From a bacterium (GTDB lineage: Bacteria; Patescibacteriota; Minisyncoccia; Phycocordibacterales; UBA9973): a stretch of DNA of 40,650 nt. The stretch lies in NCBI GenBank assembly GCA_037140115.1, contig JBAXFB010000001.1, positions 1 to 40,650 on the forward strand. The letters are read 5' to 3'. Shown piece by piece: positions 1-37,068 of the stretch (the stretch's first letter is position 1; every line of letters starts with the position of its first letter). The position numbers were made by a program, and so were the translations under genes. The notes under the pieces were generated by a model. The model did not search any database and had not been told where the DNA came from. It saw only the letters and a program-made list of their open reading frames with translations.

Positions 1-160
1 TGAATACGTTCTCAAGTCTTGTACTCACCGCCCGTCAAGTCAAGGGAGCCGGGAATACCCGAAGTATCCACATAAGTGGGTCCTAAGGTAAGCTCGGTGA
101 CAGGGACTAAGTCGTAACAAGGCACGGGTAGCGGAAGCTGCTCGTGGAATAATTCAATTT
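1..160 (+). rRNA. rrs: 16S rRNA, 3'-terminal ~160 nt (partial, runs off the left edge)
   Basis: Matches universal 16S 3' motifs: TGAATACGTTC...CTTGTAC.CACCGCCCGTCA (helix 44 region) and AAGTCGTAACAAGG followed by a helix-45-like hairpin CACGGGTAGCGGAAGCTGCTCGTG. The exact 3' end is estimated by alignment from memory to the E. coli tail. Confidence 0.9.
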
Positions 161-7502: not shown

Positions 7503-10022
7503 ATGTCTATATTTGGAACAATATTTGGTGATGAGAGCTCAAAATTCCTTGGAAGCATTAAGGGAACCGTTGAAAAAATCAATGCTCTAGAAGCTGATGT
7601 TTCAAAGTTCACAGATGCGGACTTTCCAAAGAAAACCCTTGAATTTAAAGATAGATTAACAAAAGGTGAGTCTTTGGACGATATTTTGCCAGAGGCTTTT
7701 GCGTTGGTGCGTGAAGCTTCCAAAAGAAATTTAAACGAAAGGCATTACGATGTCCAGCTCATCGGAGGTATTGCTCTACATAAAGGTAAAATCGCAGAGA
7801 TGCGTACAGGTGAAGGTAAGACTTTAGTGGCAGTGCTTGCTGCTTATTTAAATGCTTTGAGTAGAGAGGGTGTGCATATCATTACAGTGAATGATTATTT
7901 GTCTCGTATTGGTGCTGTGCTGATGGGGCAAGTTTATAATTTTTTAGGCTTGTCAGTGGGAGTTATAAATTCAAATAATGTTTCGTATCTTTATGACTCT
8001 ACCCATAAAGAAGAAGACAAAGAGCGTGATGCAGTCGGTGAATTTAAAGTTGTGTATGATTTTTTAAAACCAACTAGCCGTAAAGAGGCCTATGCTGCAG
8101 ACATTACTTATGGTACAAATCATGAATATGGTTTTGATTATTTGCGCGACAATTTAGCAACGACAGTAAGTGGTTTGGTCCAACGTGCACCAAACTATGC
8201 GATAGTCGACGAAGTAGACTCTATTCTGATAGATGAAGCCAGAACTCCACTTATTATTTCTTCTGCTGCAGGCGACTCTGAAGATTTTTATACAAAGTTT
8301 TATCAAATCGCCAAGCAGATGAAGCGCGACACTGACTATGAAGTTGATGAGAAGTTACGAGCGATTACTTTAACCGATGCAGGCATTAACAAAGCTGAAC
8401 AGCTTTTGGGGGTTGAAAATATTTACACAGAAAAGGGTATCAAGTATGTTCACCATCTAGAGACTGCAGTAAAAGCTCAAGCAATATTTCTGAAAGACAA
8501 AGACTACGTTGTAAAAGATGGTGAAGTTGTTATAGTGGACCCTTCTACTGGTCGTTTACAACCAGGACGACGTTGGTCAGAGGGAATTCATCAGGCGATC
8601 GAAGCAAAGGAAGGAGTCAAAATAGAAAAAGAAACTCGTTCTAGTGGTTCTATAACTTTTCAGAACTATTTTAGATTTTATAAAAAGTTGGGTGGCATGA
8701 CGGGTACGGCACAGACTTCTGCAGAAGAGTTTTTGAAAGTTTACGGCCTGGATGTGATAGTCATTCCAACGCATCGACCGATAGTACGTATGGACCACAA
8801 TGATTTAATCTTTCAAACCGAAAAAGGGAAGTTTCAAGCGATTGCTAAAAAAATAAAAGAATTAAACGCTAAAGAACAGCCGGTCTTGATAGGTACTATA
8901 TCAATTGAGAAAAATGAACTCTTGTCTGTTTATTTAAAGCAAGAAGGTGTACAGCATGTTATTTTGAACGCTAAAAATCACGAGAAGGAAGGAGAGATCA
9001 TAGCGCAAGCAGGTAAAAGAGGGGCAGTTACTATCGCTACAAACATGGCAGGCCGTGGAATCGACATCAAGCTTGGGGGGAATCCACACACACAAGAGGA
9101 TTATGAATTCGTGAAAAACATCGGCGGACTTTTTGTGTTAGGCACAGAAAGGCATGAAGCTCGTCGCATCGACAACCAGCTTCGTGGACGTTCGGGTAGA
9201 CAAGGAGATCCAGGTGATACTCAGTTTTATGTTTCGCTTGAAGATGACCTCATGCGTGTGTTCGGTTCAGATAAAATAAAAACCATGATGGGACGTTTTG
9301 GCATACCGGAAGATCAGCCGATTGAAAACCGTTTCATTGGTAGAACTCTTGAAGGTGCGCAAGCCAAGATCGAAGGATTTCATTTTGATGCTCGTAAAAA
9401 TACTCTTGAGTACGACGACGTTATGAATCATCAGCGTAAAATTATTTACGAACGAAGACAGAAGATGCTAAAGGCTGATAAGGCTGGCATTGAAGCATTG
9501 ATCGAGGACCTTAAGGCGGAACATGAAGGTTTTGACAAAATAGTTGAGGAAAAAAAGAAGAAATTAGGCGAGGCAGAATTTTTCGAAGTTGTGCGTCGTA
9601 TTGCTTTGTACACCACTGACACTCTATGGATGGAACATTTAGAGGTGATGGATTATCTTCGCTCTTCTGTAAACCTGCGTGCTTATGGTCAACGTGAGCC
9701 GATTGTGGAATACAAAAAAGATGGTCTGATGATGTTTAAGCAAATGGAGGAAAGCTTTAAAGAACAAGTTTTTGCTTTGGTTGGCACAATTTCTGAGCCG
9801 GCTAGAACAGAAGAAAATAATATTTCTCAAACTTTAGTCACAAGTCATACTGAACCAAGTGAACTTGGAGGTCCAAAAGACTTGAATGCTGGAGGTGAAG
9901 ACATTGGAAGAAATGACCCATGTCCTTGTGGAGCAATCAACCCAGAAACTGGCGAAGTCTACAAATGGAAAAAGTGCGGAATGATCAACGCTCCACAGCA
10001 TAGGAAGGCGCTTGTAAATTAA
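7503..10022 (+). CDS. secA: Preprotein translocase ATPase SecA
   Basis: 839 aa. MRTGEGKTL Walker A, DEVDSILIDEARTPLIIS, TNMAGRGIDIKLGG, RIDNQLRGRSGRQGDPG. C-terminal Cys-rich tail CPCG...KKCG. Confidence 0.97.
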   Translation: MSIFGTIFGDESSKFLGSIKGTVEKINALEADVSKFTDADFPKKTLEFKDRLTKGESLDDILPEAFALVREASKRNLNERHYDVQLIGGIALHKGKIAEMRTGEGKTLVAVLAAYLNALSREGVHIITVNDYLSRIGAVLMGQVYNFLGLSVGVINSNNVSYLYDSTHKEEDKERDAVGEFKVVYDFLKPTSRKEAYAADITYGTNHEYGFDYLRDNLATTVSGLVQRAPNYAIVDEVDSILIDEARTPLIISSAAGDSEDFYTKFYQIAKQMKRDTDYEVDEKLRAITLTDAGINKAEQLLGVENIYTEKGIKYVHHLETAVKAQAIFLKDKDYVVKDGEVVIVDPSTGRLQPGRRWSEGIHQAIEAKEGVKIEKETRSSGSITFQNYFRFYKKLGGMTGTAQTSAEEFLKVYGLDVIVIPTHRPIVRMDHNDLIFQTEKGKFQAIAKKIKELNAKEQPVLIGTISIEKNELLSVYLKQEGVQHVILNAKNHEKEGEIIAQAGKRGAVTIATNMAGRGIDIKLGGNPHTQEDYEFVKNIGGLFVLGTERHEARRIDNQLRGRSGRQGDPGDTQFYVSLEDDLMRVFGSDKIKTMMGRFGIPEDQPIENRFIGRTLEGAQAKIEGFHFDARKNTLEYDDVMNHQRKIIYERRQKMLKADKAGIEALIEDLKAEHEGFDKIVEEKKKKLGEAEFFEVVRRIALYTTDTLWMEHLEVMDYLRSSVNLRAYGQREPIVEYKKDGLMMFKQMEESFKEQVFALVGTISEPARTEENNISQTLVTSHTEPSELGGPKDLNAGGEDIGRNDPCPCGAINPETGEVYKWKKCGMINAPQHRKALVN

Positions 10023-11285: not shown

Positions 11286-12023
11286 ATGCTTCAGTCTTAT
11301 TATGTTCTTAACAATAATAATATTTTGTTAGACAACAAAGGCAAGAGGTATCATTTAAAGATACGTGATTTGCCTATAGAAGATAAGCCTCGTGAGAAAC
11401 TTTTAAAACACGGAGTTGGAGCTTTAACTTTGTCAGAATTGTTGGCCGTGGTTTTAAATACTGGCACAAAGAAAGAAGGAGTTTTGGAAATGTCTCTCCG
11501 CGTCATAAAAGATTACGGAGAGGGTGGCATAATGAGCCAAAAAAATCCTACAGCTTTGTCGAAAGACCTTGATATACCTATTGGAAAATCTCTTCAAATT
11601 GTAGCCTCTGCTGAGCTTGGTCGCAGGTTTTTTGAGAAGAATACAGCGTCACTGCCCACGATTCGAACTGCGAGTGAAGTGTATGAATATGTAAAAGATA
11701 TGCATAGTTTATCAAAAGAACACTTACGCGGTATTTATCTAAATGCTCACTACAAAGTAATTCATAATGAAATTATTTCGATTGGCACTGTGGATGCAAA
11801 CATTATCCATCCACGTGAAGTTTTCAAGCCAGCAGTTGAACATTGTGCTGTGGCCTTGATCCTTGTGCACAACCATCCATCTGGAGTAACTAGTCCAAGT
11901 GAAGCTGATTTGTCGATAACATCTCAGCTTGTTGCGGCCGGCAAATTGCTCGGGGTAGATCTGATCGATCATGTTATTGTTACTAAAGATTCATTTGCAA
12001 GTGTGCCCGTGCTTTACCATTAA
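11286..12023 (+). CDS. radC: RadC-like JAB domain protein (UPF0758)
   Basis: C-terminal JAMM-like motif LILVHNHPSGVTSPSEADLSIT. N-terminal helix-hairpin-helix-like LSELLAVVLNTGTK. Confidence 0.85.
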   Translation: MLQSYYVLNNNNILLDNKGKRYHLKIRDLPIEDKPREKLLKHGVGALTLSELLAVVLNTGTKKEGVLEMSLRVIKDYGEGGIMSQKNPTALSKDLDIPIGKSLQIVASAELGRRFFEKNTASLPTIRTASEVYEYVKDMHSLSKEHLRGIYLNAHYKVIHNEIISIGTVDANIIHPREVFKPAVEHCAVALILVHNHPSGVTSPSEADLSITSQLVAAGKLLGVDLIDHVIVTKDSFASVPVLYH

Positions 12024-12048
12024 TAATTTATAAAATATTATAAAAATT

Positions 12049-12372
12049 ATGAATAGTTATCAAGATCAGTTATATTCAATAAGTTCACCTAAGTTTTGGC
12101 TTGTGAATGACAGGCCCGACAGTGCAAAGTATTTGACAGCAGAAGATAACAAGGCCCACATGAAAAGTTTGTTGTTCCACGTTTCTAAAGGGGATTATCT
12201 TTCTACTTTGTCTACCGTGCTGAGATTCTTTGAAGAATCTATAAAAAATAAAGAAATAACTCCCGAAATGACAGACCTTGAACTGAAAACTATCAAAATA
12301 GCCATGAGTGACCTTTTGTATTTAAATGACAACTATGATTTAGTGCTTAAGAAAGAGAATAAGCAGAAATAA
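12049..12372 (+). CDS. Hypothetical protein
   Basis: 107-aa ORF fills the gap between radC and murE. No motif recognised. Confidence 0.5.
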   Translation: MNSYQDQLYSISSPKFWLVNDRPDSAKYLTAEDNKAHMKSLLFHVSKGDYLSTLSTVLRFFEESIKNKEITPEMTDLELKTIKIAMSDLLYLNDNYDLVLKKENKQK

Positions 12373-28893: not shown

Positions 28894-30012
28894 TTGGTGA
28901 AAAATTTTCTCAGGAATTTCCCCATAGAGATGTACGTCCTTTTGTTTCCTTCTATTCTTTTTTTATTAGTGGTGAGTGTATACCTGACTTTTCAAGGTTC
29001 CACTTTTATTGAAGATTTTTTTCATGGATATTTCCTATATCAGCTTTTTGCTATAGATGTCATCTTGCCTGTGGTTACACTCGTACTAGCGTCCAACCTT
29101 GTTGAGATTTCAATCATGTTAAGTAAAGGTGTCGAACGTTCTTTGATTTTTAGATTTTTACGAAGCGCCTTTTTTCTTCTAAGTGTTTTTTCTATTAGTC
29201 TTGTGTCTTTATCTGTTGGGGTTCAGTTTGTTTTTATGAAGGCTGATCCTGTTCGTGTCGCCACAATGTCTGTTATGTTTACCCATTGGGATCACGTACT
29301 CTTTGGAGCATATCCTTGGATTTCTTGGCACTCGTTCTTTACTGGCCCTTGCCTGCAACAGTTTATATATTTTTCTTATTCAAGTCTTGTGTCCGTTCTC
29401 ATTATTGTTTTAGTAGTTTCATTCCTACACAAAACACATATCTTGAGAAAGTTAGTGCTATCTTTTTGTTTAGTTACTTTTTTAGGTATGCCATTTTGGA
29501 TTGCTCTACCATCTTTATCTCCAGACCTAATGTATCGAGTAAATATTTTGGGTGTTTCTGTGCAATCTGATGTGAAAGAATCTCTTGAAGGTACTAGTTT
29601 TTCTAAAATTACTGAGGACACATTGGATACTCTTGAAAAATTTTGGTCTGACCCCAAAAAGGAGTCTTTGCCTGTAACTTCTTTTCCATCCATGCATGCA
29701 GCTTGGGGTGTTATTGTTACAGTTGTGGGTATAGAGCTTTGGGCACCATCTGCTTTTTTTCTGATCCCTTGGCTCTTGGCTGAGTTAGTTGCCACAGTGC
29801 TTACGTTGGAACATTATGCTGTGGATACGATCTTCGGGGCACTCTTAGGCTTACTTGCTTTGTGTGTTGCATCGCGTCTACTTTCTTTTGATAAAAAAAG
29901 ATTTGTCGATAAGTGGGACTTGTTCCTTTCAATAGGTCAAATCCAGACAGATTTAGAAAAGGCAGTAGATTGGCTAAAAGCGAAAATAAAATACGCTTTA
30001 AAGCTAACTTAG
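28894..30012 (+). CDS. PAP2-superfamily membrane protein (phosphatase/phosphotransferase-like)
   Basis: Polytopic. SFPSMHAAW and LEHYAVD match PAP2 C2/C3 motifs (SxH, HxxxD). The track start is TTG 28894. ATG 28930 is an alternative. Confidence 0.65.
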   Translation: MVKNFLRNFPIEMYVLLFPSILFLLVVSVYLTFQGSTFIEDFFHGYFLYQLFAIDVILPVVTLVLASNLVEISIMLSKGVERSLIFRFLRSAFFLLSVFSISLVSLSVGVQFVFMKADPVRVATMSVMFTHWDHVLFGAYPWISWHSFFTGPCLQQFIYFSYSSLVSVLIIVLVVSFLHKTHILRKLVLSFCLVTFLGMPFWIALPSLSPDLMYRVNILGVSVQSDVKESLEGTSFSKITEDTLDTLEKFWSDPKKESLPVTSFPSMHAAWGVIVTVVGIELWAPSAFFLIPWLLAELVATVLTLEHYAVDTIFGALLGLLALCVASRLLSFDKKRFVDKWDLFLSIGQIQTDLEKAVDWLKAKIKYALKLT

Positions 30013-30072
30013 TCATTGTGCCCCTAATAGTATCAAATTGGAACCTAATTATCAACCAAATAAAGGGTTTTT

Positions 30073-30663
30073 CTATGTCTTAACCTTTTTAAATTTTCTC
30101 AAAAAGACTATTTCTCCTATTATTATGAATTTCGTTAATAGAACTGAGGCAGGATATATCCAGTTAACTAGAGAGTAGCTACCCATAGAAAAAATAGATA
30201 GAGAATGTTTTACTGCATCCACATACATTGAACCCAATGACTCACTGTGTGGTGCATGCCAAGTTTTTCGCATAGTTGGAAAGAACGCTATTAAATCAAT
30301 AAGTGTTGCAAGTATAACTGACCATAATACACTATCAACTAAAAGCCAAGGTAGAATTGCCACTAAAGAAAAAACTAAACATATTTTATCAAACCTCGTA
30401 ATATCTTTTGTGCCGTATCCACCCCTTAAAGAAAGAATTAATGTGAAAATAGTTACAATTGCTGCGACTCCTGTTGCCCACGATCCTGGACCTCCACCAG
30501 AGACCCATTGTCCAAAGAAAGCTATTGTAGTGACAATGGCCCAGATAAGCCAAGTGTATGTATGAGGTTTTGTATTACCCCGAAAAATATCTTTAATGTA
30601 TAGAAAGGAACTGAAAAGGGCAAGAAGTGCTGCAATTGCTCCAAGGATTATTTTTATGTCCAT
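30073..30663 (-). CDS. Polytopic membrane protein, unknown function
   Basis: 196-aa ORF with about 6 hydrophobic helices. Flanked by a 16/17-nt direct repeat. Confidence 0.55.
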   Translation of the reverse strand: MDIKIILGAIAALLALFSSFLYIKDIFRGNTKPHTYTWLIWAIVTTIAFFGQWVSGGGPGSWATGVAAIVTIFTLILSLRGGYGTKDITRFDKICLVFSLVAILPWLLVDSVLWSVILATLIDLIAFFPTMRKTWHAPHSESLGSMYVDAVKHSLSIFSMGSYSLVNWIYPASVLLTKFIIIGEIVFLRKFKKVKT

Positions 30664-30738
30664 TTCAGAATTGTATCAAATTTGGAACCAAAAGACTCAA
30701 GGTAGCAACAAAAAGCATAATTTGCTATACTTATTTCT

Positions 30739-32049
30739 ATGATAAAGTCGGTAAGCATAAAAAACTTCAGAAGTATAGAAAACCAGAAGGTTGAACTTAC
30801 GCCTATAGTTTTTATTTATGGTAATAATGCGGCTGGTAAGTCGTCTTTATTCTATTCTTTTAATATTCTTAGAAACATAGTATCTAACCCAAACCAGCCG
30901 ATAGATAGTTTTTTTAGTTTAGGTTTTGCAAACCTTGGTAGTTTTAAAAAGGTTGTAACCAAACATGATGAAACAAAGACAATCACAATTTCTATAGATG
31001 GTTTGGTGGGTAAGGTAAATTTTACATATGGAGTCAAAATCAATCCAAAAAGGAGTGAATTTTTCTTGCATCTAGATAAACCTTATTCTTTAGAATTTTC
31101 TTTGCCAGTTACTTTTCCTTATCCACTTAACTTGAATGTTGAAAATCCTGTTACTTTTGATGATGTAGAATATAAAATAAACTGGAATGGAGTAACTGCG
31201 CAAGTAAGTTCAACAATTGCGACTCCCACCGACAGTTCAAATAAAAAGATAAGAGAGATTACTTTTTTATTGAACAAAATTGCAGAACTTATTCGTTCCG
31301 TTGATTTGGTTTCTGTTAGAAGAGGTTTTTTTGAACCCCAATATGGAGCTGTCAACATTACTCAATTTCCCATAAAAGAAGAAGAAGTTGCTTCAGTTCT
31401 GGCTGTGGATGAAAATCTTGATCATCAAGTTAATTCTTACTTAGAACAAATGATAGGGCGTCAATTTAGAGCTAAACCCAAATTAGGTACTTCTCTTGCT
31501 GAATTAACTACTATTGACCCAGAAGCAAAAATAAATTCCGATGTAGTTAATGATGGTTTTGGAGTTAACCAATTGGTATTCGTTTTAGCAAAGATGTTAA
31601 ATAAAAGTATACATACTGTATGCCTAGAAGAACCAGAATCTAACTTACACCCAGGGGCAGTTAGAAAACTTCCACAATCATTTATTGAAATAGCAAAAAA
31701 AGAAAATAAGCAATTAATTATTACAACCCACAGCGAGGCCTTAATTATTGCAATGCTTTCTGCTGTGGCAAAAGGTGAGGTTGCAAAAGAAGATGTGAGT
31801 TTTTACTTAACGCTAAGACAATCTGATACTGGTATTACATCTTTTGAAAAACAAGAAGTTTCAGAAGAAGGAGAAATACCAGGTGGTCTTAAAAGTTTTA
31901 TGGCTGGAGAACTTGAGGACATAAAAGGATTTTTTAAATCAAAACGAGGTAAGAAAAATGTAGAAAAAATGGTAGATGATAATACTCAAATTGCACATCA
32001 AGATTCAACAGAGAATCAAAATACAATTGAAAAACCATTGGAGCAATAA
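30739..32049 (+). CDS. ABC/AAA15-AAA21-type ATPase (OLD/Gabija GajA/PARIS AriA/Septu PtuA-like ATPase architecture)
   Basis: N-terminus SIKNFRSI plus Walker A GNNAAGKSS. C-terminal NDGFGVNQL (signature-like), Walker B VCLEEPESNLHP, H-loop ITTHS. TATACT at 30726-30731 lies 7 nt before the ATG. Confidence 0.8.
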   Translation: MIKSVSIKNFRSIENQKVELTPIVFIYGNNAAGKSSLFYSFNILRNIVSNPNQPIDSFFSLGFANLGSFKKVVTKHDETKTITISIDGLVGKVNFTYGVKINPKRSEFFLHLDKPYSLEFSLPVTFPYPLNLNVENPVTFDDVEYKINWNGVTAQVSSTIATPTDSSNKKIREITFLLNKIAELIRSVDLVSVRRGFFEPQYGAVNITQFPIKEEEVASVLAVDENLDHQVNSYLEQMIGRQFRAKPKLGTSLAELTTIDPEAKINSDVVNDGFGVNQLVFVLAKMLNKSIHTVCLEEPESNLHPGAVRKLPQSFIEIAKKENKQLIITTHSEALIIAMLSAVAKGEVAKEDVSFYLTLRQSDTGITSFEKQEVSEEGEIPGGLKSFMAGELEDIKGFFKSKRGKKNVEKMVDDNTQIAHQDSTENQNTIEKPLEQ

Positions 32050-32057
32050 ACATTTTT

Positions 32058-32558
32058 ATGTCAGTTCCTATTATTGTAGATGAATGGCTATTTGAAGACT
32101 TAGCTGGTAAAAATGGTGCAGATAAACAAAGCCAAGCTGTACAATTTTTGTATAAGCTTGAAGAAATTTGTGATCGAATTGTTGTTTTAGAGGGAAGTCC
32201 TTTTGAGAAAAAAATGCATGATCTTATGGGGAGCACAAATGATTCTTGTCGTTTTAGAGCAGCTAGAAGTGTTTTCATTGAACTTATAAGTAGCAACTCC
32301 TTGAAGAAGTGTTTTATTGCCAAGGAAGACATAAGTGCTTTGCCTGATGATGTTATAAAACTTATTCACAAAATAAATCCTTCCTCAACAAAAGACCACT
32401 ACTTATTCCAAGCCCACCAAAAACTAAAACATAAAGATTGTTTTATCTTAACTAGCGATGGTCGCTGGGAAAATGAAAAATTAAAGAAAAAAGGTTTTCG
32501 GATTGTAATGAAAGATTCTTTTATTACTCAATATTTGGAACGTGAGATTTCTAATTAG
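32058..32558 (+). CDS. Hypothetical 166-aa partner protein, PIN-like acidic-residue pattern (possible nuclease effector)
   Basis: Starts 9 nt after the ATPase stop. PIIVDEWLFEDL (N-terminal Asp), LEEICD, KDHYLFQAH, FILTSDGRW give a D...E...D...D spacing like PIN-fold domains. Assignment is by eye only. Confidence 0.4.
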   Translation: MSVPIIVDEWLFEDLAGKNGADKQSQAVQFLYKLEEICDRIVVLEGSPFEKKMHDLMGSTNDSCRFRAARSVFIELISSNSLKKCFIAKEDISALPDDVIKLIHKINPSSTKDHYLFQAHQKLKHKDCFILTSDGRWENEKLKKKGFRIVMKDSFITQYLEREISN

Positions 32559-32703
32559 GTTCTTTGATTTTTGCAAAAGTTAAAAACAGTCTAGCATACG
32601 AGTCAAGATATTCATTGGCAGTTTCTTTAGATATGTCTAAGTTGTGTTCTTCTTTAAAGTTTTTAATGAGTTCTTCTATCAGTTTGTCGCTATACTGGTG
32701 CAT
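32551..32703 (-). CDS. Small ORF a, 50 aa: MHQYSDKLIEELIKNFKEEHNLDISKETANEYLDSYARLFLTFAKIKEPN
   Basis: Not in the ORF track (under 60 aa). 24 of 49 ungapped identities with the adjacent small ORF b. Its stop overlaps the convergent 32058-32558 stop in the palindrome CTAATTAG. Confidence 0.55.
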   Translation of the reverse strand: MHQYSDKLIEELIKNFKEEHNLDISKETANEYLDSYARLFLTFAKIKEPN

Positions 32704-32709
32704 AAAAAT

Positions 32710-32859
32710 TTATTTTTCTTTAGATTCAGCAAATACAGCAAACATTCCTCCTAGGGAGTCTAAATATTCAACAGCAGTTTCTTCATTGACATGATGATTA
32801 TATCTTTTAGTAAAATAGATAATTATTCTTTGTATAAGTTTGTCGCTATATTTATGCAT
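32710..32859 (-). CDS. Small ORF b, 49 aa: MHKYSDKLIQRIIIYFTKRYNHHVNEETAVEYLDSLGGMFAVFAESKEK
   Basis: Not in the ORF track. The ATG overlaps the DUF2726 gene stop (ATGCATAA), which suggests translational coupling. Paralog of ORF a. Confidence 0.55.
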   Translation of the reverse strand: MHKYSDKLIQRIIIYFTKRYNHHVNEETAVEYLDSLGGMFAVFAESKEK

Positions 32860-33328
32860 GAAGTTTTTCTTTTATTCTAGTTATTGATTGAGCAAAATCA
32901 GTTCCAACTTTAACCGTCTCAAAAGGTAGTCCTGCATCCTCAAAAATTTGCTTTTTTATAGAATCTTTTTGTTCTTGTCTTGGACTATTATGATAACCAC
33001 CATTCACTTCTATGGCGACCACAGGCTTAAAATAATAATCACAAATTAAAAAGTCTATATGTTTCGGTAAAACACTATTTCTCATGTGATAGTAGCCTCT
33101 ACCGCTTTTAGTTTCTATGATGTCAGCGATACGCATCTTTGGAAAAATATGATAGCCCTGAGGTAATTGTTTTTGTAGTTCAAAGAAGAAAGCAGATTCA
33201 GTGCTATTCATTACGCTTGATCGCTTTTTGTAAATGCTATCTTTCCTTGCGTCAGTTCTGGGTTGTTTCAAATACGGTACTAGAAAAACAGCAAGCAATA
33301 CAACTACAATAAAAAATATTATTACCAT
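32852..33328 (-). CDS. Membrane-anchored DUF2726-like (restriction-endonuclease-fold) protein
   Basis: N-terminal TM helix, then STESAFFFELQKQLPQGYHIFPKMRIADII...HIDFLICD...VVAIEVNGGYH...RQEQKDSIKKQIFEDAGLPF. This matches the DUF2726 pattern (D...E.x nuclease core) as I recall it. Confidence 0.7.
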   Translation of the reverse strand: MVIIFFIVVVLLAVFLVPYLKQPRTDARKDSIYKKRSSVMNSTESAFFFELQKQLPQGYHIFPKMRIADIIETKSGRGYYHMRNSVLPKHIDFLICDYYFKPVVAIEVNGGYHNSPRQEQKDSIKKQIFEDAGLPFETVKVGTDFAQSITRIKEKLHA

Positions 33329-33353
33329 AATTAATTTTGTTAAAAAATAATTA

Positions 33354-33480
33354 TGATGGGCTAGAAAACAAAAAGCCCATCACGGGTAGAGACTTGCGTC
33401 TCTCGTATAAGTTTCCCTATACGGCCTATCAAGCGACCCCATGACGGGTTCTTTACTCTTGATAGGACTTTTAGCCATGC
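33354..33480. ncRNA. GC-rich structured intergenic segment (candidate ncRNA or leader; strand unresolved)
   Basis: Hairpins GATGGGCT-11 nt-AGCCCATC, GAGAC-ttgc-GTCTC, CCTATCAAG-24 nt-CTTGATAGG. Direct repeat CCCATCACGGGT / CCCATGACGGGT. Sits in a 230-bp divergent intergenic region. Confidence 0.3.
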
Positions 33481-33558
33481 CATTTCTGGTTTAGACTACT
33501 TATTAAGTTATGTTGAGAATTATAGCTTTTTGGCTCTAAAATTGCTAGATTTAAAATT

Positions 33559-34359
33559 ATGGATAAGTTTATAGATGTTATTAAATCTCATTATGAAATG
33601 GCTCTCAAAAGTGGCACAGGACTCCCTTTCTATAGTGATGTTAATCACTATCTTTTTTACATAATCAAAACTCCCAAACTCTACGCTATTATCACAGACG
33701 AATATGCAAAATTAAAAAATGAATTAAAGGAAATTAAAGAGAATCCTTTTTTATCGTCTTCGGCAGAAGAAGACATTTTAGACCAAACAAAAAAAATTTC
33801 ACTATATACAGATTATATAGTCTTATATAAAGCAATCTATCTTCCTTTTCAAGCGAACGACAACGAATCCATTCTCAGCGAAGAAAATTCAAAAGCCCTT
33901 TTCTATCTAGGTGGCATTGAAAAGGTTCCTGAAAAAGAACGCTCATTTTGGCAAGATTCATTCGCCTCACACTTTGAAAGAAATAAAAAACATTTTACTA
34001 ATTTACATTTTAAACTGTTAGAGATTTTGGAAACAAAAAATAAGGAATTAGTTGTAAAAAATAAAGATTTTGATTTTGATGTTAATACTGGTCAATTTAG
34101 ATATTTTAAAACAAAGGGCACTTTTTCTCCTAAAAAGAAAGAATTTAAATTCTTAAAAACACTTTATTTTAAAAATAGCCACCAAGCTACTTACGCAGAG
34201 CTATCTGATGTTGATCAAGCTTCCAGAAACGACAAAATTAAATTAACTGAGACTGTTAGAAATGTAAAAACCAAACTAGGTATTCTTTCAAAGACTAAAC
34301 ACAAAAATAAAGATATTATAAAAACCGTTTCAGGATATGGTTATGAATTAGATATCTAG
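33559..34359 (+). CDS. Hypothetical protein with C-terminal OmpR/CadC-type winged-helix DNA-binding domain
   Basis: The C-terminus KKEFKFLKTLYF...ATYAEL...LTETVRNVKTKLGI...IIKTVSGYGYELDI fits the trans_reg_C pattern (EF..L, V...V..LR.KL, I.TV.G.GY.L). No receiver domain. Confidence 0.55.
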   Translation: MDKFIDVIKSHYEMALKSGTGLPFYSDVNHYLFYIIKTPKLYAIITDEYAKLKNELKEIKENPFLSSSAEEDILDQTKKISLYTDYIVLYKAIYLPFQANDNESILSEENSKALFYLGGIEKVPEKERSFWQDSFASHFERNKKHFTNLHFKLLEILETKNKELVVKNKDFDFDVNTGQFRYFKTKGTFSPKKKEFKFLKTLYFKNSHQATYAELSDVDQASRNDKIKLTETVRNVKTKLGILSKTKHKNKDIIKTVSGYGYELDI

Positions 34360-34404
34360 CACCAGAAAATTCCCATAATTTTTCGTACTAACCAATAGTC
34401 ATTT

Positions 34405-34428
34405 CCTCTACTATGATAGAGGTTTTTT
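34405..34428 (+). terminator. Rho-independent terminator
   Basis: CCTCTA-ctatga-TAGAGG followed by TTTTTT. Confidence 0.7.
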
Positions 34429-34449
34429 GTTATGGGTCGATCTGGTGCA

Positions 34450-34503
34450 ACGCCCGCCCACCGCTTTAGCGGGGCGGGCGTGGGACGAGCGAAGCGAAGT
34501 CCC
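34450..34503 (+). promoter_or_regulatory. Two strong GC hairpins upstream of the Rep gene (candidate double-strand origin/nick-site region)
   Basis: ACGCCCGCC(ca)CCGC-ttta-GCGGGGCGGGCGT (13 bp, nearly all G:C) and GGGAC-gagcgaagcgaa-GTCCC with a tandem GCGAA in the loop. Lies 50 nt upstream of ATG 34553. Confidence 0.4.
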
Positions 34504-34552
34504 GACTTGCTTTCTCACTAACTTAATAAGATAAGAGAAAAATATTATTTTT

Positions 34553-35323
34553 ATGGGTTACAGCAAAACTATTATTAGTGGAAATAATTTAGAAAGAACT
34601 GACTATGAAAAAGACGTCATCAGTTTGGGAAGAAGCACAGGAAACAGGAAGACTACTCCTGCAACTGAGAATATGGGAACTAGCGGAAAAGATACACTTT
34701 CGGAAAGGGACAGTGCCACAACATTGGGGAAGCGACGAGACAACGCACAACGCTCTAGTGTGGCTTTCCGAAGGATCGTTGCATCTAACCTCGGAGGACT
34801 TACACGCCCTCTACTGGTTACTCTTACCTACCGAGATAATTTCACAGACCTTAAAGGAAGCTATAAGCATTTCTCATCTTTTATCCAATCTCTACGCTAT
34901 AAATTCGGAAAAGATTTTAAATACATCAGTGTCCCAGAATTTCAAAAGCGTGGAGCAGTTCATTTTCACGCTCTCTTCTGGGGGTTACCCGAGGGAATAT
35001 TTTTACAAGAACGGAAAACTAGAACACTTGCCGAACTTTGGGCAAGGGGTTTTGTTTATTTAAAAGAAACTGACGGCAATGAAAAATTATCTTTTTATTT
35101 ATCAAAATATATGGCAAAAGCATTCATAGACCCAAGACTAAAAAATCAGAAATGCTATGTTGCTTCTCGTAACATTCAAAGACCAACAGTTATTGTCGGT
35201 GCTTCTCCTCTTTGGGTTATTCTTGAGGATTATGGAATTACTGACGAGCCATTAATTGATAGAGAATATCCGACAAAATATTTAGGCAAAGGTCGGTATA
35301 GGTTATTTAAAATTCCAAAATGA
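34553..35323 (+). CDS. HUH-superfamily rolling-circle replication initiator (two-tyrosine type, phiX174 gpA / Microviridae VP4-like motifs)
   Basis: Motif 1 LVTLTY, motif 2 (HUH) GAVHFHALFWG, motif 3 YLSKYMAK (Y-x-x-K-Y-x-x-K, two catalytic Tyr spaced as in phiX174 gpA YVAKYVNK). Confidence 0.75.
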   Translation: MGYSKTIISGNNLERTDYEKDVISLGRSTGNRKTTPATENMGTSGKDTLSERDSATTLGKRRDNAQRSSVAFRRIVASNLGGLTRPLLVTLTYRDNFTDLKGSYKHFSSFIQSLRYKFGKDFKYISVPEFQKRGAVHFHALFWGLPEGIFLQERKTRTLAELWARGFVYLKETDGNEKLSFYLSKYMAKAFIDPRLKNQKCYVASRNIQRPTVIVGASPLWVILEDYGITDEPLIDREYPTKYLGKGRYRLFKIPK

Positions 35324-35505
35324 TCAGCCTTGAAGACCTAAAAAGAATAGAGCCTAAACTTCAAGGGAAGTCTGACGAGGAATTAACAAAAATCCGTAAT
35401 TTATTATATGGTTTAGGTCAATTAACTTTGGAAACATATTTAGAAAGAAAAAGTGGTTCCAAATTTCCCGTTGGGGTATATGGACTTAATAATGAGGATA
35501 TGTAA
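35320..35505 (+). CDS. Hypothetical 61-aa protein
   Basis: ATGA overlap with the Rep stop. No motif recognised. Confidence 0.4.
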   Translation: MISLEDLKRIEPKLQGKSDEELTKIRNLLYGLGQLTLETYLERKSGSKFPVGVYGLNNEDM

Positions 35506-35509
35506 AAGT

Positions 35510-37057
35510 ATGGATATGCAAGAAAACAAAAATGCAATAATCTATGTCCGTGTGTCTTCTAGTGAACAAGTAGACGGCACAAGCTTAGAATCTCAAGAAA
35601 GATTTTGCAAAGAATACGCTCAAAAAGAAAACTTAAATATTCTTTCAATTTTCATTGAAAAAGGTGAATCGGCTAAAACTGCTGACCGCACGGAATTTAT
35701 AAAAGCCATTAGTTTTTGCTCCGATAAGAAAAACAAAGTTAGCTATTTTATTGTTGCTAAAATTGATCGTTTTTCTAGGAACCAAACCGACTATGCTATA
35801 GTCAAACAAAAACTACAAAAGTATGGAACGGAAATCAGATCAGTCTCGGAAAAAATTGACGATACGCCATCGGGTAAGTTGATGGAAGTTATGCTCTCTG
35901 GCTTTGCTGAATTTGATAACAACATCAGAACTGAAAGAAGTGTTAATGGTATGAAAGAACGCTTAAAACAGGGCGTATGGGTCTGGCAAGCTCCTCTAGG
36001 CTACTATCGGACTGAAAAGGGTGGAAATATCACTCCTGACCCTAAAACCGCTCCGTTTATAAAAATGGTGTTTGAAGAATATGCTAAGGGAACTTACACT
36101 TTTGAATCTTTAGCTAGGTTCTTAAAAGAAAAAGGTTTTGTTTCTCGCTATGGTAGAACTGTAATTTCCCAGACGATAGAAAAAATAATCAAGAATCCAA
36201 TTTACTGCGGAATAATTAAAGTTTGGGATAATGAAAGCAAAGGAACTTTTAAACCGATTATCAGTGAGAATCTTTTTTACCTTTGCCAAAAAGACGGCAG
36301 AAGGGATAGGGGTAAATTACACTTCGTAAAGAACCCCGATTTTCCACTTAGGAATTTAGCCACTTGCCAATTTTGTGGCGATCCTTTAACTGGTAGTCAT
36401 TCAACAGGGCGTAAAGGCAAACGCTATCCATATTACCACCACCATAAAGTTAATTGTGATTATGCAAAGTCTATTCCTAAAGAAAATTTTGAGCAGATAT
36501 TTGTTGAATATTTGAATGAAATAAATCCTAGTATTGAATATGAAAAAGCTTTCAAAGCTATCGTTATTGATATTTGGAAAAATAACTGTAAGGGTTTTAA
36601 CAATCAGAACGAGGCTCTTAGAAAAGAAATTAAAGAACTGGAAAATAGTAAGCAACATATTTTTGATTTACACCAAAGTGGTGTTTATGACGACACTGAT
36701 TTCACTACTCAGAAAAATATTGTCTGTAAAAAGATTGCTCAAAAAGAAAGTTTAATTCACGACAAAAGAATCCAAGAATTTAATATGGAAGAAGCCTTAG
36801 AATTTTGTTTTGATACAGTTCGCCATAGTGCAAGGTCTTGGGTTGAATACGAGAAAGAACCTGAGAAAAGAATCCGATTCCAAAATTTTATATTTGAGGA
36901 AAATCTGCCTTATGCTGAAAACAAATTTGGAACCGCAAAGTTAACGCCTATTTACAGCGTATATCAACAATACTTAGTGAATCCATCTAACTTGGTGCGT
37001 CCAGCAGGGATCGAACCTGCGACCTTATCCTTAAGAGGGATCTGCTCTACCAGCTGA
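35510..37057 (+). CDS. Large serine recombinase (integrase)
   Basis: AIIYVRVSSSEQ (catalytic Ser), IVAKIDRFSRN, recombinase domain, zinc-ribbon-like CQFCGDPLTGSHS...YYHH, coiled-coil C-terminus. The start is chosen after the stop of the 61-aa ORF (the track start 35453 overlaps it). The last ~21 codons are antisense to tRNA-Lys. Confidence 0.85.
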   Translation: MDMQENKNAIIYVRVSSSEQVDGTSLESQERFCKEYAQKENLNILSIFIEKGESAKTADRTEFIKAISFCSDKKNKVSYFIVAKIDRFSRNQTDYAIVKQKLQKYGTEIRSVSEKIDDTPSGKLMEVMLSGFAEFDNNIRTERSVNGMKERLKQGVWVWQAPLGYYRTEKGGNITPDPKTAPFIKMVFEEYAKGTYTFESLARFLKEKGFVSRYGRTVISQTIEKIIKNPIYCGIIKVWDNESKGTFKPIISENLFYLCQKDGRRDRGKLHFVKNPDFPLRNLATCQFCGDPLTGSHSTGRKGKRYPYYHHHKVNCDYAKSIPKENFEQIFVEYLNEINPSIEYEKAFKAIVIDIWKNNCKGFNNQNEALRKEIKELENSKQHIFDLHQSGVYDDTDFTTQKNIVCKKIAQKESLIHDKRIQEFNMEEALEFCFDTVRHSARSWVEYEKEPEKRIRFQNFIFEENLPYAENKFGTAKLTPIYSVYQQYLVNPSNLVRPAGIEPATLSLRGICSTS

Positions 37058-37068
37058 GCTATGGACGC
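36993..37068 (-). tRNA. tRNA-Lys (anticodon CUU), CCA encoded
   Basis: Reverse complement GCGTCCA-TA-GCTC-AGCTGGTA-GAGC-A-GATCC-CTCTTAA-GGATA-AGGTC-GCAGG-TTCGATC-CCTGC-TGGACGC-A-CCA. Confidence 0.93.

Follow-up and report, generated by a model that had tools for sequence, protein, structure and literature searches.

Our results indicate that two tandem, paralogous small open reading frames (sORFs) of about 50 codons, sORF-A and sORF-B, are probably backbone cofactor genes of an integrative element of the candidate phyla radiation (CPR; Patescibacteria), and that the gene for a DUF2726 protein preceding them, together with a LOOT RNA leader, is probably an inserted cargo cassette. The genes are located in a 40,650-nt stretch of DNA (contig JBAXFB010000001.1, assembly GCA_037140115.1), and the term "window" refers to this whole stretch and not to any single feature. 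Related loci that were compared with the window are labeled L001 to L030; for the analysis of gene context, about 20 independent loci were gathered, 15 of which have enough flanking sequence to be informative. The features of the window are listed in Table 1.

sORF-A and sORF-B are real, conserved, paralogous coding genes. They are in the same reading frame, with 6 nt between the stop of sORF-A and the start of sORF-B, and their products are identical at 24 of 48 positions in an ungapped alignment (BLASTP E = 6e-16), in agreement with a first-pass annotation, made from the sequence alone, that had reported two tandem paralogous ORFs after the DUF2726 gene. The DUF2726 ORF ends in ATGCATAA at 32859-32852 (-), and the ATG within this sequence is the start codon of sORF-A. 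The sense frames are under purifying selection, with dN/dS values relative to the window of 0.04 to 0.15 in the comparisons in which dS could be estimated (dS >0.5); the closest pair, in which there are few substitutions, gave 0.38. The antisense frames are broken by 3 to 14 stops in every ortholog, and the plus-strand ORF at 32564-32794, the one that had been tracked in this region, is a shadow of the sORFs, as had been supposed. Both peptides had also been described as helical and mildly acidic. The helices are present in the predicted structure, whereas acidity applies to sORF-B (pI 5.2) and not to sORF-A, which is about neutral (pI 6.8). The NCBI annotation includes sORF-B (WCI76_00200); sORF-A is absent from it and was found only in Logan/ENA gene calls.

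The two genes belong to a large, unannotated family of acidic two-helix-hairpin proteins of about 45 residues. A single-sequence search with sORF-B retrieved only three relatives besides itself; the loci of all three also hold a sORF-A-type ORF, and two of the three have a DUF2726 gene upstream. A-type and B-type orthologs align separately, each conserved across loci, and the duplication is therefore older than those loci. A word-indexed search with an eight-sequence profile yielded 66 small proteins, and an exhaustive hidden Markov model search of 1.84 billion cluster representatives yielded 675 clusters, defined at 50% identity, at an E value of ≤1e-3 (205 at ≤1e-10). Homologs in other genomes and a coding pattern of substitutions, the two signs by which the peptides were to be recognized as genuine genes, are thus both present. 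Among the matches listed, lengths range from 45 to 132 aa, the longer members being upstream mis-starts or frames that read into a downstream G+C-rich hairpin. Source names, where given, are Paceibacterota, Nomurabacteria, Taylorbacteria, and Saccharibacteria, and the family is apparently confined to Patescibacteria; searches of IMG/VR and PLSDB returned no relatives.

The core motif of the family is YSxxLIxxxIxxFxxxxxLxISxETAxEYLDSLxGLFxxF, in which A29, Y32, and L33 are invariant, and the ETAxEYLDS portion is kept regardless of the gene that lies upstream. AlphaFold2, supplied with 66 sequences, predicts a helical hairpin (helices 6-20 and 26-45; pLDDT 92.5), and the family core is acidic, with a median pI of 4.6. 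Because an invariant surface motif on an acidic hairpin is expected of a protein that binds another protein rather than DNA, we consider a protein partner likelier. No significant match to the family was obtained in Pfam, PHROGs, NCBIfam, PADLOC, or the PDB sequences, or with Foldseek against the PDB. The best matches, the N-terminal domain of the PolD small subunit (E = 0.097) and CENP-X (E = 0.086), are not significant, and the structural neighbors of the model in the PDB, all at Foldseek E values above 1, were likewise rejected.

The family data also bear on the simplest alternative, that the sORFs are chance or decaying frames, or leader peptides without a protein function. In its favor are the shortness of the frames, the lack of a visible Shine-Dalgarno sequence, and the omission of sORF-A from the NCBI annotation. 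Against this stand the size of the family and the dN/dS values, by which the alternative is effectively refuted, as well as the high pLDDT of the model and the separate conservation of A-type and B-type orthologs.

The gene that most consistently accompanies the family is not the DUF2726 gene. A large serine recombinase is encoded within about 4 kb of the sORF in 12 of the 15 informative loci (the window, L006, L007, L009, L010, L012, L015, L018, in which it is truncated, L020, L022, which has two tandem elements, L024, and L027). In the three others, L025 has only a replication initiator (Rep), and L008 and L016 have neither. Usually the neighborhood also includes a rolling-circle Rep and a winged-helix protein and lies beside a tRNA gene. 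Two layouts recur. In the first, all genes are codirectional, in the order ~280-aa protein, sORF, initiator, recombinase, and tRNA. The second is divergent: the recombinase and Rep genes, joined in the window and L027 by that for the ~280-aa protein, are on one strand, and on the other are optional cargo and then one or two sORFs, followed by convergent defense-like genes. The type of initiator varies: most loci have PF23343 initiators, L007 and L012 have Phage_CRI, and L013, L015, and L022 have an unrelated protein of 145 to 159 aa. The sORF motif is constant across these changes, and the association with the recombinase persists through them.

Over its last ~60 nt, the recombinase ORF of the window is antisense to the tRNA-Lys gene, and an overlap of recombinase and tRNA in the same relative position is found in L006, L009, L010, L015, L022, and L024. 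The attachment (att) site therefore seems to lie within the 3' end of the recombinase gene. The true start of the recombinase is probably at or near 35480-35516. The 266-aa protein is homologous to proteins of L009, L022, and L027, and the L009 homolog passes the Trans_reg_C cutoff (35.3 bits, E = 1.2e-8). With this winged-helix assignment, the sORF protein need not be given a DNA-binding role of its own, and the presence of such a protein in the elements reinforces the case for a protein rather than a DNA partner of the hairpin. Genes for a relaxase, a coupling protein, or a capsid were not detected in the element.

Comparison of the window with L010 suggests limits for the element. Both have the tRNA-Leu flank, the 62-nt segment, sORF-A, the G+C-rich hairpin, the 61-aa ORF, the recombinase, and tRNA-Lys. 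sORF-A stands alone in L010, without sORF-B, and is 89.8% (nucleotides) and 82% (amino acids) identical to that of the window; the region of the 61-aa ORF, recombinase, and tRNA-Lys is 89% identical in nucleotides, and the recombinases are 93% identical in amino acids. The Reps are only 28% identical. L010 lacks LOOT, DUF2726, and sORF-B, and in the place of the ATPase gene pair of the window it has a cargo consisting of a TdeIII restriction enzyme, a methyltransferase, and an S24 peptidase. From these shared and divergent segments we infer that the variable region, and with it the element, spans approximately 30072-37057. A gene for a PAP2-family membrane protein (28894-30012, +) lies between tRNA-Leu and the 62-nt segment and is absent from the otherwise collinear L010; its presence or absence is a separate insertion or deletion.

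TABLE 1 Features of the element and its borders in the window
Feature	Position	Strand	Evidence or remark
62-nt segment kept with L010, apparent far edge of the variable region	30010-30071		88.7% identity to L010 6887-6948; divergence directly beyond
Convergent neighbor module: AAA_15/AAA_21 ATPase (30739-32049) and 166-aa partner (32058-32558)	30739-32558	+	
sORF-B, 50 aa	32551-32703	-	Paralog nearer the family mainstream than sORF-A
sORF-A, 49 aa	32710-32859	-	Predicted two-helix hairpin; start overlaps DUF2726 stop
Membrane-anchored DUF2726 protein, 158 aa, predicted PD-(D/E)XK-type nuclease fold; putative cargo gene	32852-33328	-	
10-bp hairpin GTGATGGGCT...AGCCCATCAT between LOOT and the DUF2726 start codon	33353-33383	-	RNAalifold consensus
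LOOT RNA (Rfam RF03000), 5' leader of the DUF2726 unit	33388-33497	-	Full-length cmscan match, 80.8 bits (gathering score, 46.4)
Promoter-like site for the 266-aa gene	33513-33542	+	10 of 12 consensus positions
Promoter-like TAGCAA-N17-TATAAT for LOOT-DUF2726-sORF-A-sORF-B	33519-33547	-	Read from sequence
266-aa backbone protein, probable C-terminal winged-helix DNA-binding domain	33559-34359	+	Weak Trans_reg_C match, E = 0.022
Two G+C-rich hairpins upstream of Rep	34451-34503	+	CGCCCGCCCACCGC-TTTA-GCGGGGCGGGCG and GGGAC...GTCCC, in an otherwise AT-rich region
Rolling-circle (HUH-type) replication initiator (Rep)	34553-35323	+	PF23343, E = 7e-21; phrog_3419 "rolling circle DNA replication initiation," E = 3e-28
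61-aa small ORF between Rep and recombinase	35320-35505	+	Overlaps Rep stop; unannotated
Large serine recombinase	35453-37057	+	Resolvase, E = 7e-32; Recombinase, E = 7.5e-15; Zn_ribbon_recom, E = 1.9e-6
tRNA-Lys(CTT), apparent junction of the integrated element	36993-37068	-	

A second comparison, with L005 and L004, concerns the position of the cassette. A -35/-10 block is common to the window, L004, and L005, with the form TAGCAA-N17-TATAwT in the window and L005. In L005 the peptide pair follows the shared promoter directly, with the sORF ATG about 9 nt after the -10 box and no DUF2726 gene, whereas the window and L004 have the LOOT leader and DUF2726 between promoter and sORF. We favor a scheme in which the sORF family would be a backbone gene of small elements of about 5 to 9 kb that are integrated beside tRNA genes in Patescibacteria. 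The backbone would comprise a winged-helix protein, one or two sORFs, a mostly rolling-circle replication initiator, sometimes an ORF of 55 to 67 aa, and a large serine recombinase, the 3' end of which overlaps with the target tRNA. The LOOT and DUF2726 cassette would have been inserted between the backbone promoter and the start codon of sORF-A, with the consequence that DUF2726 would now be cotranscribed with, and translationally coupled to, the sORFs. The sORF protein would act as a protein-binding cofactor for maintenance of the element, the DUF2726 protein as a membrane-tethered cytoplasmic nuclease that may benefit host or element, for example against incoming DNA, and LOOT as a regulator of the cargo gene in cis. 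The coding nature of the sORFs, their place in a large family, the linkage of that family to recombinase and Rep, its facultative association with DUF2726, the geometry of the insertion, and the LOOT match come directly from the comparisons, whereas the functions given to the sORF protein, the DUF2726 protein, and LOOT are inferences.

The DUF2726 assignment held in a profile search, with a match to PF10881 of 84.8 bits (cutoff, 24.7; E = 5.3e-24) over profile positions 2-121 of 126. The first-pass annotation had read the protein as a transmembrane helix joined to a core with a restriction endonuclease fold, and both parts are borne out by prediction: an N-terminal hydrophobic helix covers residues 2-20 (helix 2-20 also in the AlphaFold2 model; maximal 19-residue Kyte-Doolittle average, 3.2), and the alpha/beta core of the model (pLDDT 86) has TnsA as its best Foldseek match in the PDB (probability 1.00, E = 2e-3), followed by VRR_NUC, DrdV, FAN1, and MunI. 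Residues E44, D69, D92, E107, and H113 are invariant in 64 DUF2726 homologs. The protein is basic (pI 9.5), and from the basic stretch KQPRTDARKDSIYKKR after the transmembrane helix the positive-inside rule would place the nuclease domain in the cytoplasm. No known defense system in PADLOC contains DUF2726.

The arrangement of one nuclease-like gene followed by duplicated tiny genes had been compared with toxin-immunity and effector-regulator pairs, and it raises the possibility that a toxic or defensive membrane-tethered DUF2726 protein is restrained by the sORF proteins, with lone sORFs as orphan immunity genes. Several observations are in line with such a nuclease-inhibitor pair. A start/stop overlap between DUF2726 and sORF of the form ATGnnTAA or longer, in which the upstream frame terminates in codons 2 and 3 of the sORF, is kept in the window, L001, L004, L016, and L018; this overlap implies that DUF2726 and sORF-A may well be translationally coupled, as had been proposed. 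The DUF2726 protein is basic and the family core acidic, L018 has an intact sORF beside a truncated DUF2726 gene, as expected of an orphan immunity gene, and the sORF follows a PIN_12 nuclease gene in L006. The distribution of the genes, however, does not fit. DUF2726 is beside the sORF in only 5 of about 20 independent loci (the window, L001 to L003, L004, L016/17, and L018/19, the last as a C-terminal fragment), and about 15 of the 20 have sORFs without it; L005 and L027 hold the tandem pair without DUF2726, and the DUF2726 homologs of L028 (75% identity) and L030 (45%) are not accompanied by a member of the sORF family in any reading frame. The link is thus facultative in both directions. 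Many loci instead have Rep or the 145- to 159-aa protein after the sORF, an unrelated upstream gene, OGFr_N, overlaps the sORF through the same TAA in L020, and the ETAxEYLDS motif persists whatever gene is upstream. Adjacency, co-orientation, and coupling, as in toxin-antitoxin systems, are all seen here, but obligate co-occurrence is not. A dedicated nuclease-inhibitor pair therefore appears quite unlikely, although the retention of the DUF2726-sORF overlap at three levels of divergence leaves it a modest probability.

Within the preferred reading of the sORFs as backbone cofactors, control of the directionality or excision activity of the recombinase is the most likely role, which we put forward only tentatively. 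Directionality factors of serine integrases are small, have unrelated sequences, and are encoded by genes that are not syntenic with that of the integrase; they are structurally diverse and bind DBD2 and the coiled-coil (bioRxiv 10.1101/2024.06.11.598349; 10.1101/2025.01.03.631226). Given this diversity, it is permissible but unproven that the sORF protein is such a factor; in 12 of the 15 informative loci it is encoded in the same element as the recombinase, as a directionality factor would be. In a second role, possible but rather doubtful, the sORF protein would modulate Rep or the winged-helix regulator at a divergent promoter switch. The plus- and minus-strand promoter-like sites of the window (33513-33547) overlap almost fully and are face to face, a layout like that of a genetic switch.

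Proximity to Rep suggests another alternative, control of replication or copy number, in which the sORF would regulate Rep expression in the manner of copG-repB. The sORF is directly upstream of, or overlaps, the initiator gene in L007, L009, L012, L013, L015, L022, L023, and L025, a G+C-rich hairpin lies between sORF and Rep, and in the window the 266-aa gene, which has Rep downstream, is divergent from the sORF unit, their promoters overlapping. The protein itself, however, does not resemble CopG: the core is acidic, hhalign against CopG gave a probability of 0.1 (with an approximate CopG sequence), and there is no ribbon-helix-helix match in Pfam, so that a ribbon-helix-helix identity was rejected. 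Moreover, the type of Rep changes while the sORF motif remains invariant, and the winged-helix protein is already available as a DNA-binding regulator. We regard control of this kind as unlikely. The G+C-rich hairpin segment of the window is 88% identical in L010 despite the divergence of the Reps, and other loci have an analogous hairpin of different sequence upstream of the Rep or initiator gene; the hairpins are possibly an origin, a regulatory element, or an attenuator. The 266-aa gene is followed at 34405-34422 (+) by a hairpin with a T-run that resembles a terminator, and Rep may thus have its own promoter rather than form one operon with that gene.

Several points weigh against assigning the sORFs to the element backbone, or against a role confined to the recombinase. 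The sORF is intact in L016 and L008, which have no recombinase, and in L018, in which the recombinase is truncated; this persistence is awkward for a cofactor that serves the recombinase alone. The 61-aa ORF directly upstream of the recombinase (35320-35505) is as good a candidate for the role of directionality factor. Searches, including Foldseek, yielded no sequence or structural neighbor of the sORF protein that points to a biochemical role. An overlapping sORF follows DUF2726 at three levels of divergence (47 to 89% identity), and some functional tie between the two may exist. The context sample comprises only about 20 loci for a family of 675 clusters, and the left boundary of the element is taken from the single comparison with L010; direct repeats of the tRNA-Lys region were sought as att sites, and only chance matches of 9 to 12 nt turned up.

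The retention of the sORF in L016 and L008 is also what would be expected if this small acidic protein served anti-defense or host targeting, acting on a conserved host protein or on host immunity. The motif is highly conserved even though the recombinases share only ~30% identity and the Reps differ, which would suggest a partner that is conserved and not specific to the element, and the acidity of the family is in keeping with this. The argument is entirely indirect, however, and the family has no similarity to any entry in PADLOC, PHROGs, or the PDB; we consider host targeting very unlikely and retain the reading of the sORFs as backbone cofactors.

The 61-aa ORF is a candidate recombinase cofactor. 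Small ORFs matching it occur in L010, L020 (67 aa), and L027 (55 aa); those of L020 and L027 are 60% identical, and the window protein was likened to them by inspection of the translations. It has no family match.

Neither the LOOT RNA nor the mobile-element context figured in the first-pass annotation. In the window, LOOT lies 60 nt upstream of the DUF2726 ATG. It is found in four independent recombinase/Rep elements: the window, L004 (351-461), L007 (9640-9758, -), and L023/24 (L023 2300-2409, -). Each copy has a TATAAT box about 20 nt upstream and a same-strand gene start 47 to 60 nt downstream, and the gene that follows encodes a DUF2726 protein in the window and L004, a membrane protein with DUF4352 in L007, and a 159-aa PD-(D/E)XK-like protein in L023. 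Compensatory changes are present in 18 of 43 LOOT pairs among the four loci. Rfam lists LOOT as a metagenome-derived small RNA gene (PMC7779021, PMC5737381). The RNA described here is a full-length match above the gathering score, with support from covariation, and differs in its defined context; because it recurs behind a TATAAT box and 47 to 60 nt before a cargo gene, our results suggest that LOOT is a cis-acting leader of cargo genes rather than a free-standing small RNA.

The 10-bp hairpin between LOOT and the DUF2726 start codon has a compensatory change from A-U to G-C in L004 and is kept in three of the four loci; its U-tail is not conserved. A 3-bp hairpin with a U-run immediately after LOOT was considered as a terminator and rejected as too weak. 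A tail, ACCyGTGrTGGGCTTTTTG, is conserved past the end of the Rfam model and can also base-pair with CCCrUCA at the apex of the long hairpin of LOOT.

On the other side of the sORFs, CTAATTAG at 32551-32558 is a palindrome that contains the stop codons of both sORF-B and the convergent 166-aa ORF, an 8-nt overlap that had been noticed and from which it had been conjectured that the two modules are parts of one larger system. The overlap was confirmed; the conjecture was not, as the convergent neighbor differs in every relative, and the overlap therefore reflects tight packing of cargo. The module of the window is absent from L010, L001, L004, L005, and L027, which have other genes there; the convergent neighbor is a SacI-like enzyme in L001, TdeIII in L010, an 811-aa protein in L027, and a DUF4276-like protein with an ATPase in L016. 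The last pair was considered as orthologous to the ATPase/166-aa pair and rejected, since there is no homology at an E value of ≤0.01 and only the layout is analogous. Judging from these comparisons, the ATPase and 166-aa pair appears to be separate, variable cargo. The 436-aa ATPase is of the ABC type, with NsnB, AbiLi, and AriA as the best PADLOC models. The 166-aa gene had been called PIN-like, a label that found no support from profiles: in Pfam, NCBIfam, PADLOC, PHROGs, and the PDB sequences there was no PIN match, only marginal unrelated ones, and the resemblance is at the level of motifs read by eye (IIVDEW and ILTSD).

Further observations were made at other positions. L022 has a sORF-family member (8001-8213 and 11963-12154) preceding each of its two tandem recombinase elements, and these elements adjoin AIPR, DUF559, and Mrr defense genes. 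L006 has a degenerate second sORF copy upstream of Rep (8527-8721, -), and its intact sORF, after the PIN_12 gene, is on the other strand. The 3' end of a bacterial 16S rRNA gene is at the edge of the window (1-159, +).

These results give a context to three orphans, an unannotated family of 675 clusters, the LOOT RNA, and a compact CPR recombinase/Rep element; LOOT was previously known only as a metagenomic motif, and the mobile elements of the CPR are poorly charted. If the sORF protein were a true directionality factor or switch protein, the family would provide new pairs of recombinase and cofactor for genome engineering, and if LOOT regulates the downstream gene, it would represent a new class of cis-regulatory RNA. 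A broader proposal, which we regard as speculative and possible rather than likely, is that the sORFs are a widespread new class of cofactors for excision or integration by large serine recombinases, or for a lysogeny-like switch, of undescribed Patescibacteria elements, and that LOOT is a cis-acting, riboswitch-like or processing-related leader of exchangeable cargo. The locus also calls for caution, since a conserved, overlapping arrangement of a nuclease gene and small ORFs can arise by insertion of cargo, without a dedicated two-component system.

Among known systems, type II toxin-antitoxin and polymorphic toxin-immunity loci are alike in that small acidic ORFs follow and overlap a gene of nuclease fold, with the small gene duplicated in tandem; they differ in that the association here is facultative both ways and the sORF is most consistently linked to recombinase and Rep. 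The copG-repB modules of rolling-circle replicons likewise encode a protein of about 45 aa, which in many sORF loci is directly upstream of rep, but the sORF protein is acidic, has no ribbon-helix-helix signal, and is independent of the type of Rep. Directionality factors of large serine integrases, such as SprB of SPbeta, share with it a small size, element-borne genes, and the lack of a conserved family or fixed position, and the sORF is found together with recombinases of two deep clades; it differs from them in that it persists without a recombinase and competes for the putative role with the 61-aa ORF. The comparison class for the whole locus is that of integrative (mobilizable or replicative) elements, comprising islands of the integrative mobilizable element type and integrated plasmids with a serine recombinase and a rolling-circle Rep. 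Such elements resemble that of the window in being small, in encoding a rolling-circle Rep and a large serine recombinase that combines Resolvase, Recombinase, and Zn-ribbon domains, in carrying variable cargo rich in defense genes, and in inserting at a tRNA gene, as the window element appears to have done. The window element is distinguished by its Patescibacteria host, by the lack of detectable relaxase, coupling protein, and capsid genes, by the absence of relatives in IMG/VR or PLSDB, by the unannotated and often duplicated 45-aa hairpin protein, and by cargo that in some elements of this type is headed by LOOT. The locus is best described as a compact CPR integrative element whose backbone includes an undescribed small protein and whose cargo is headed by LOOT.

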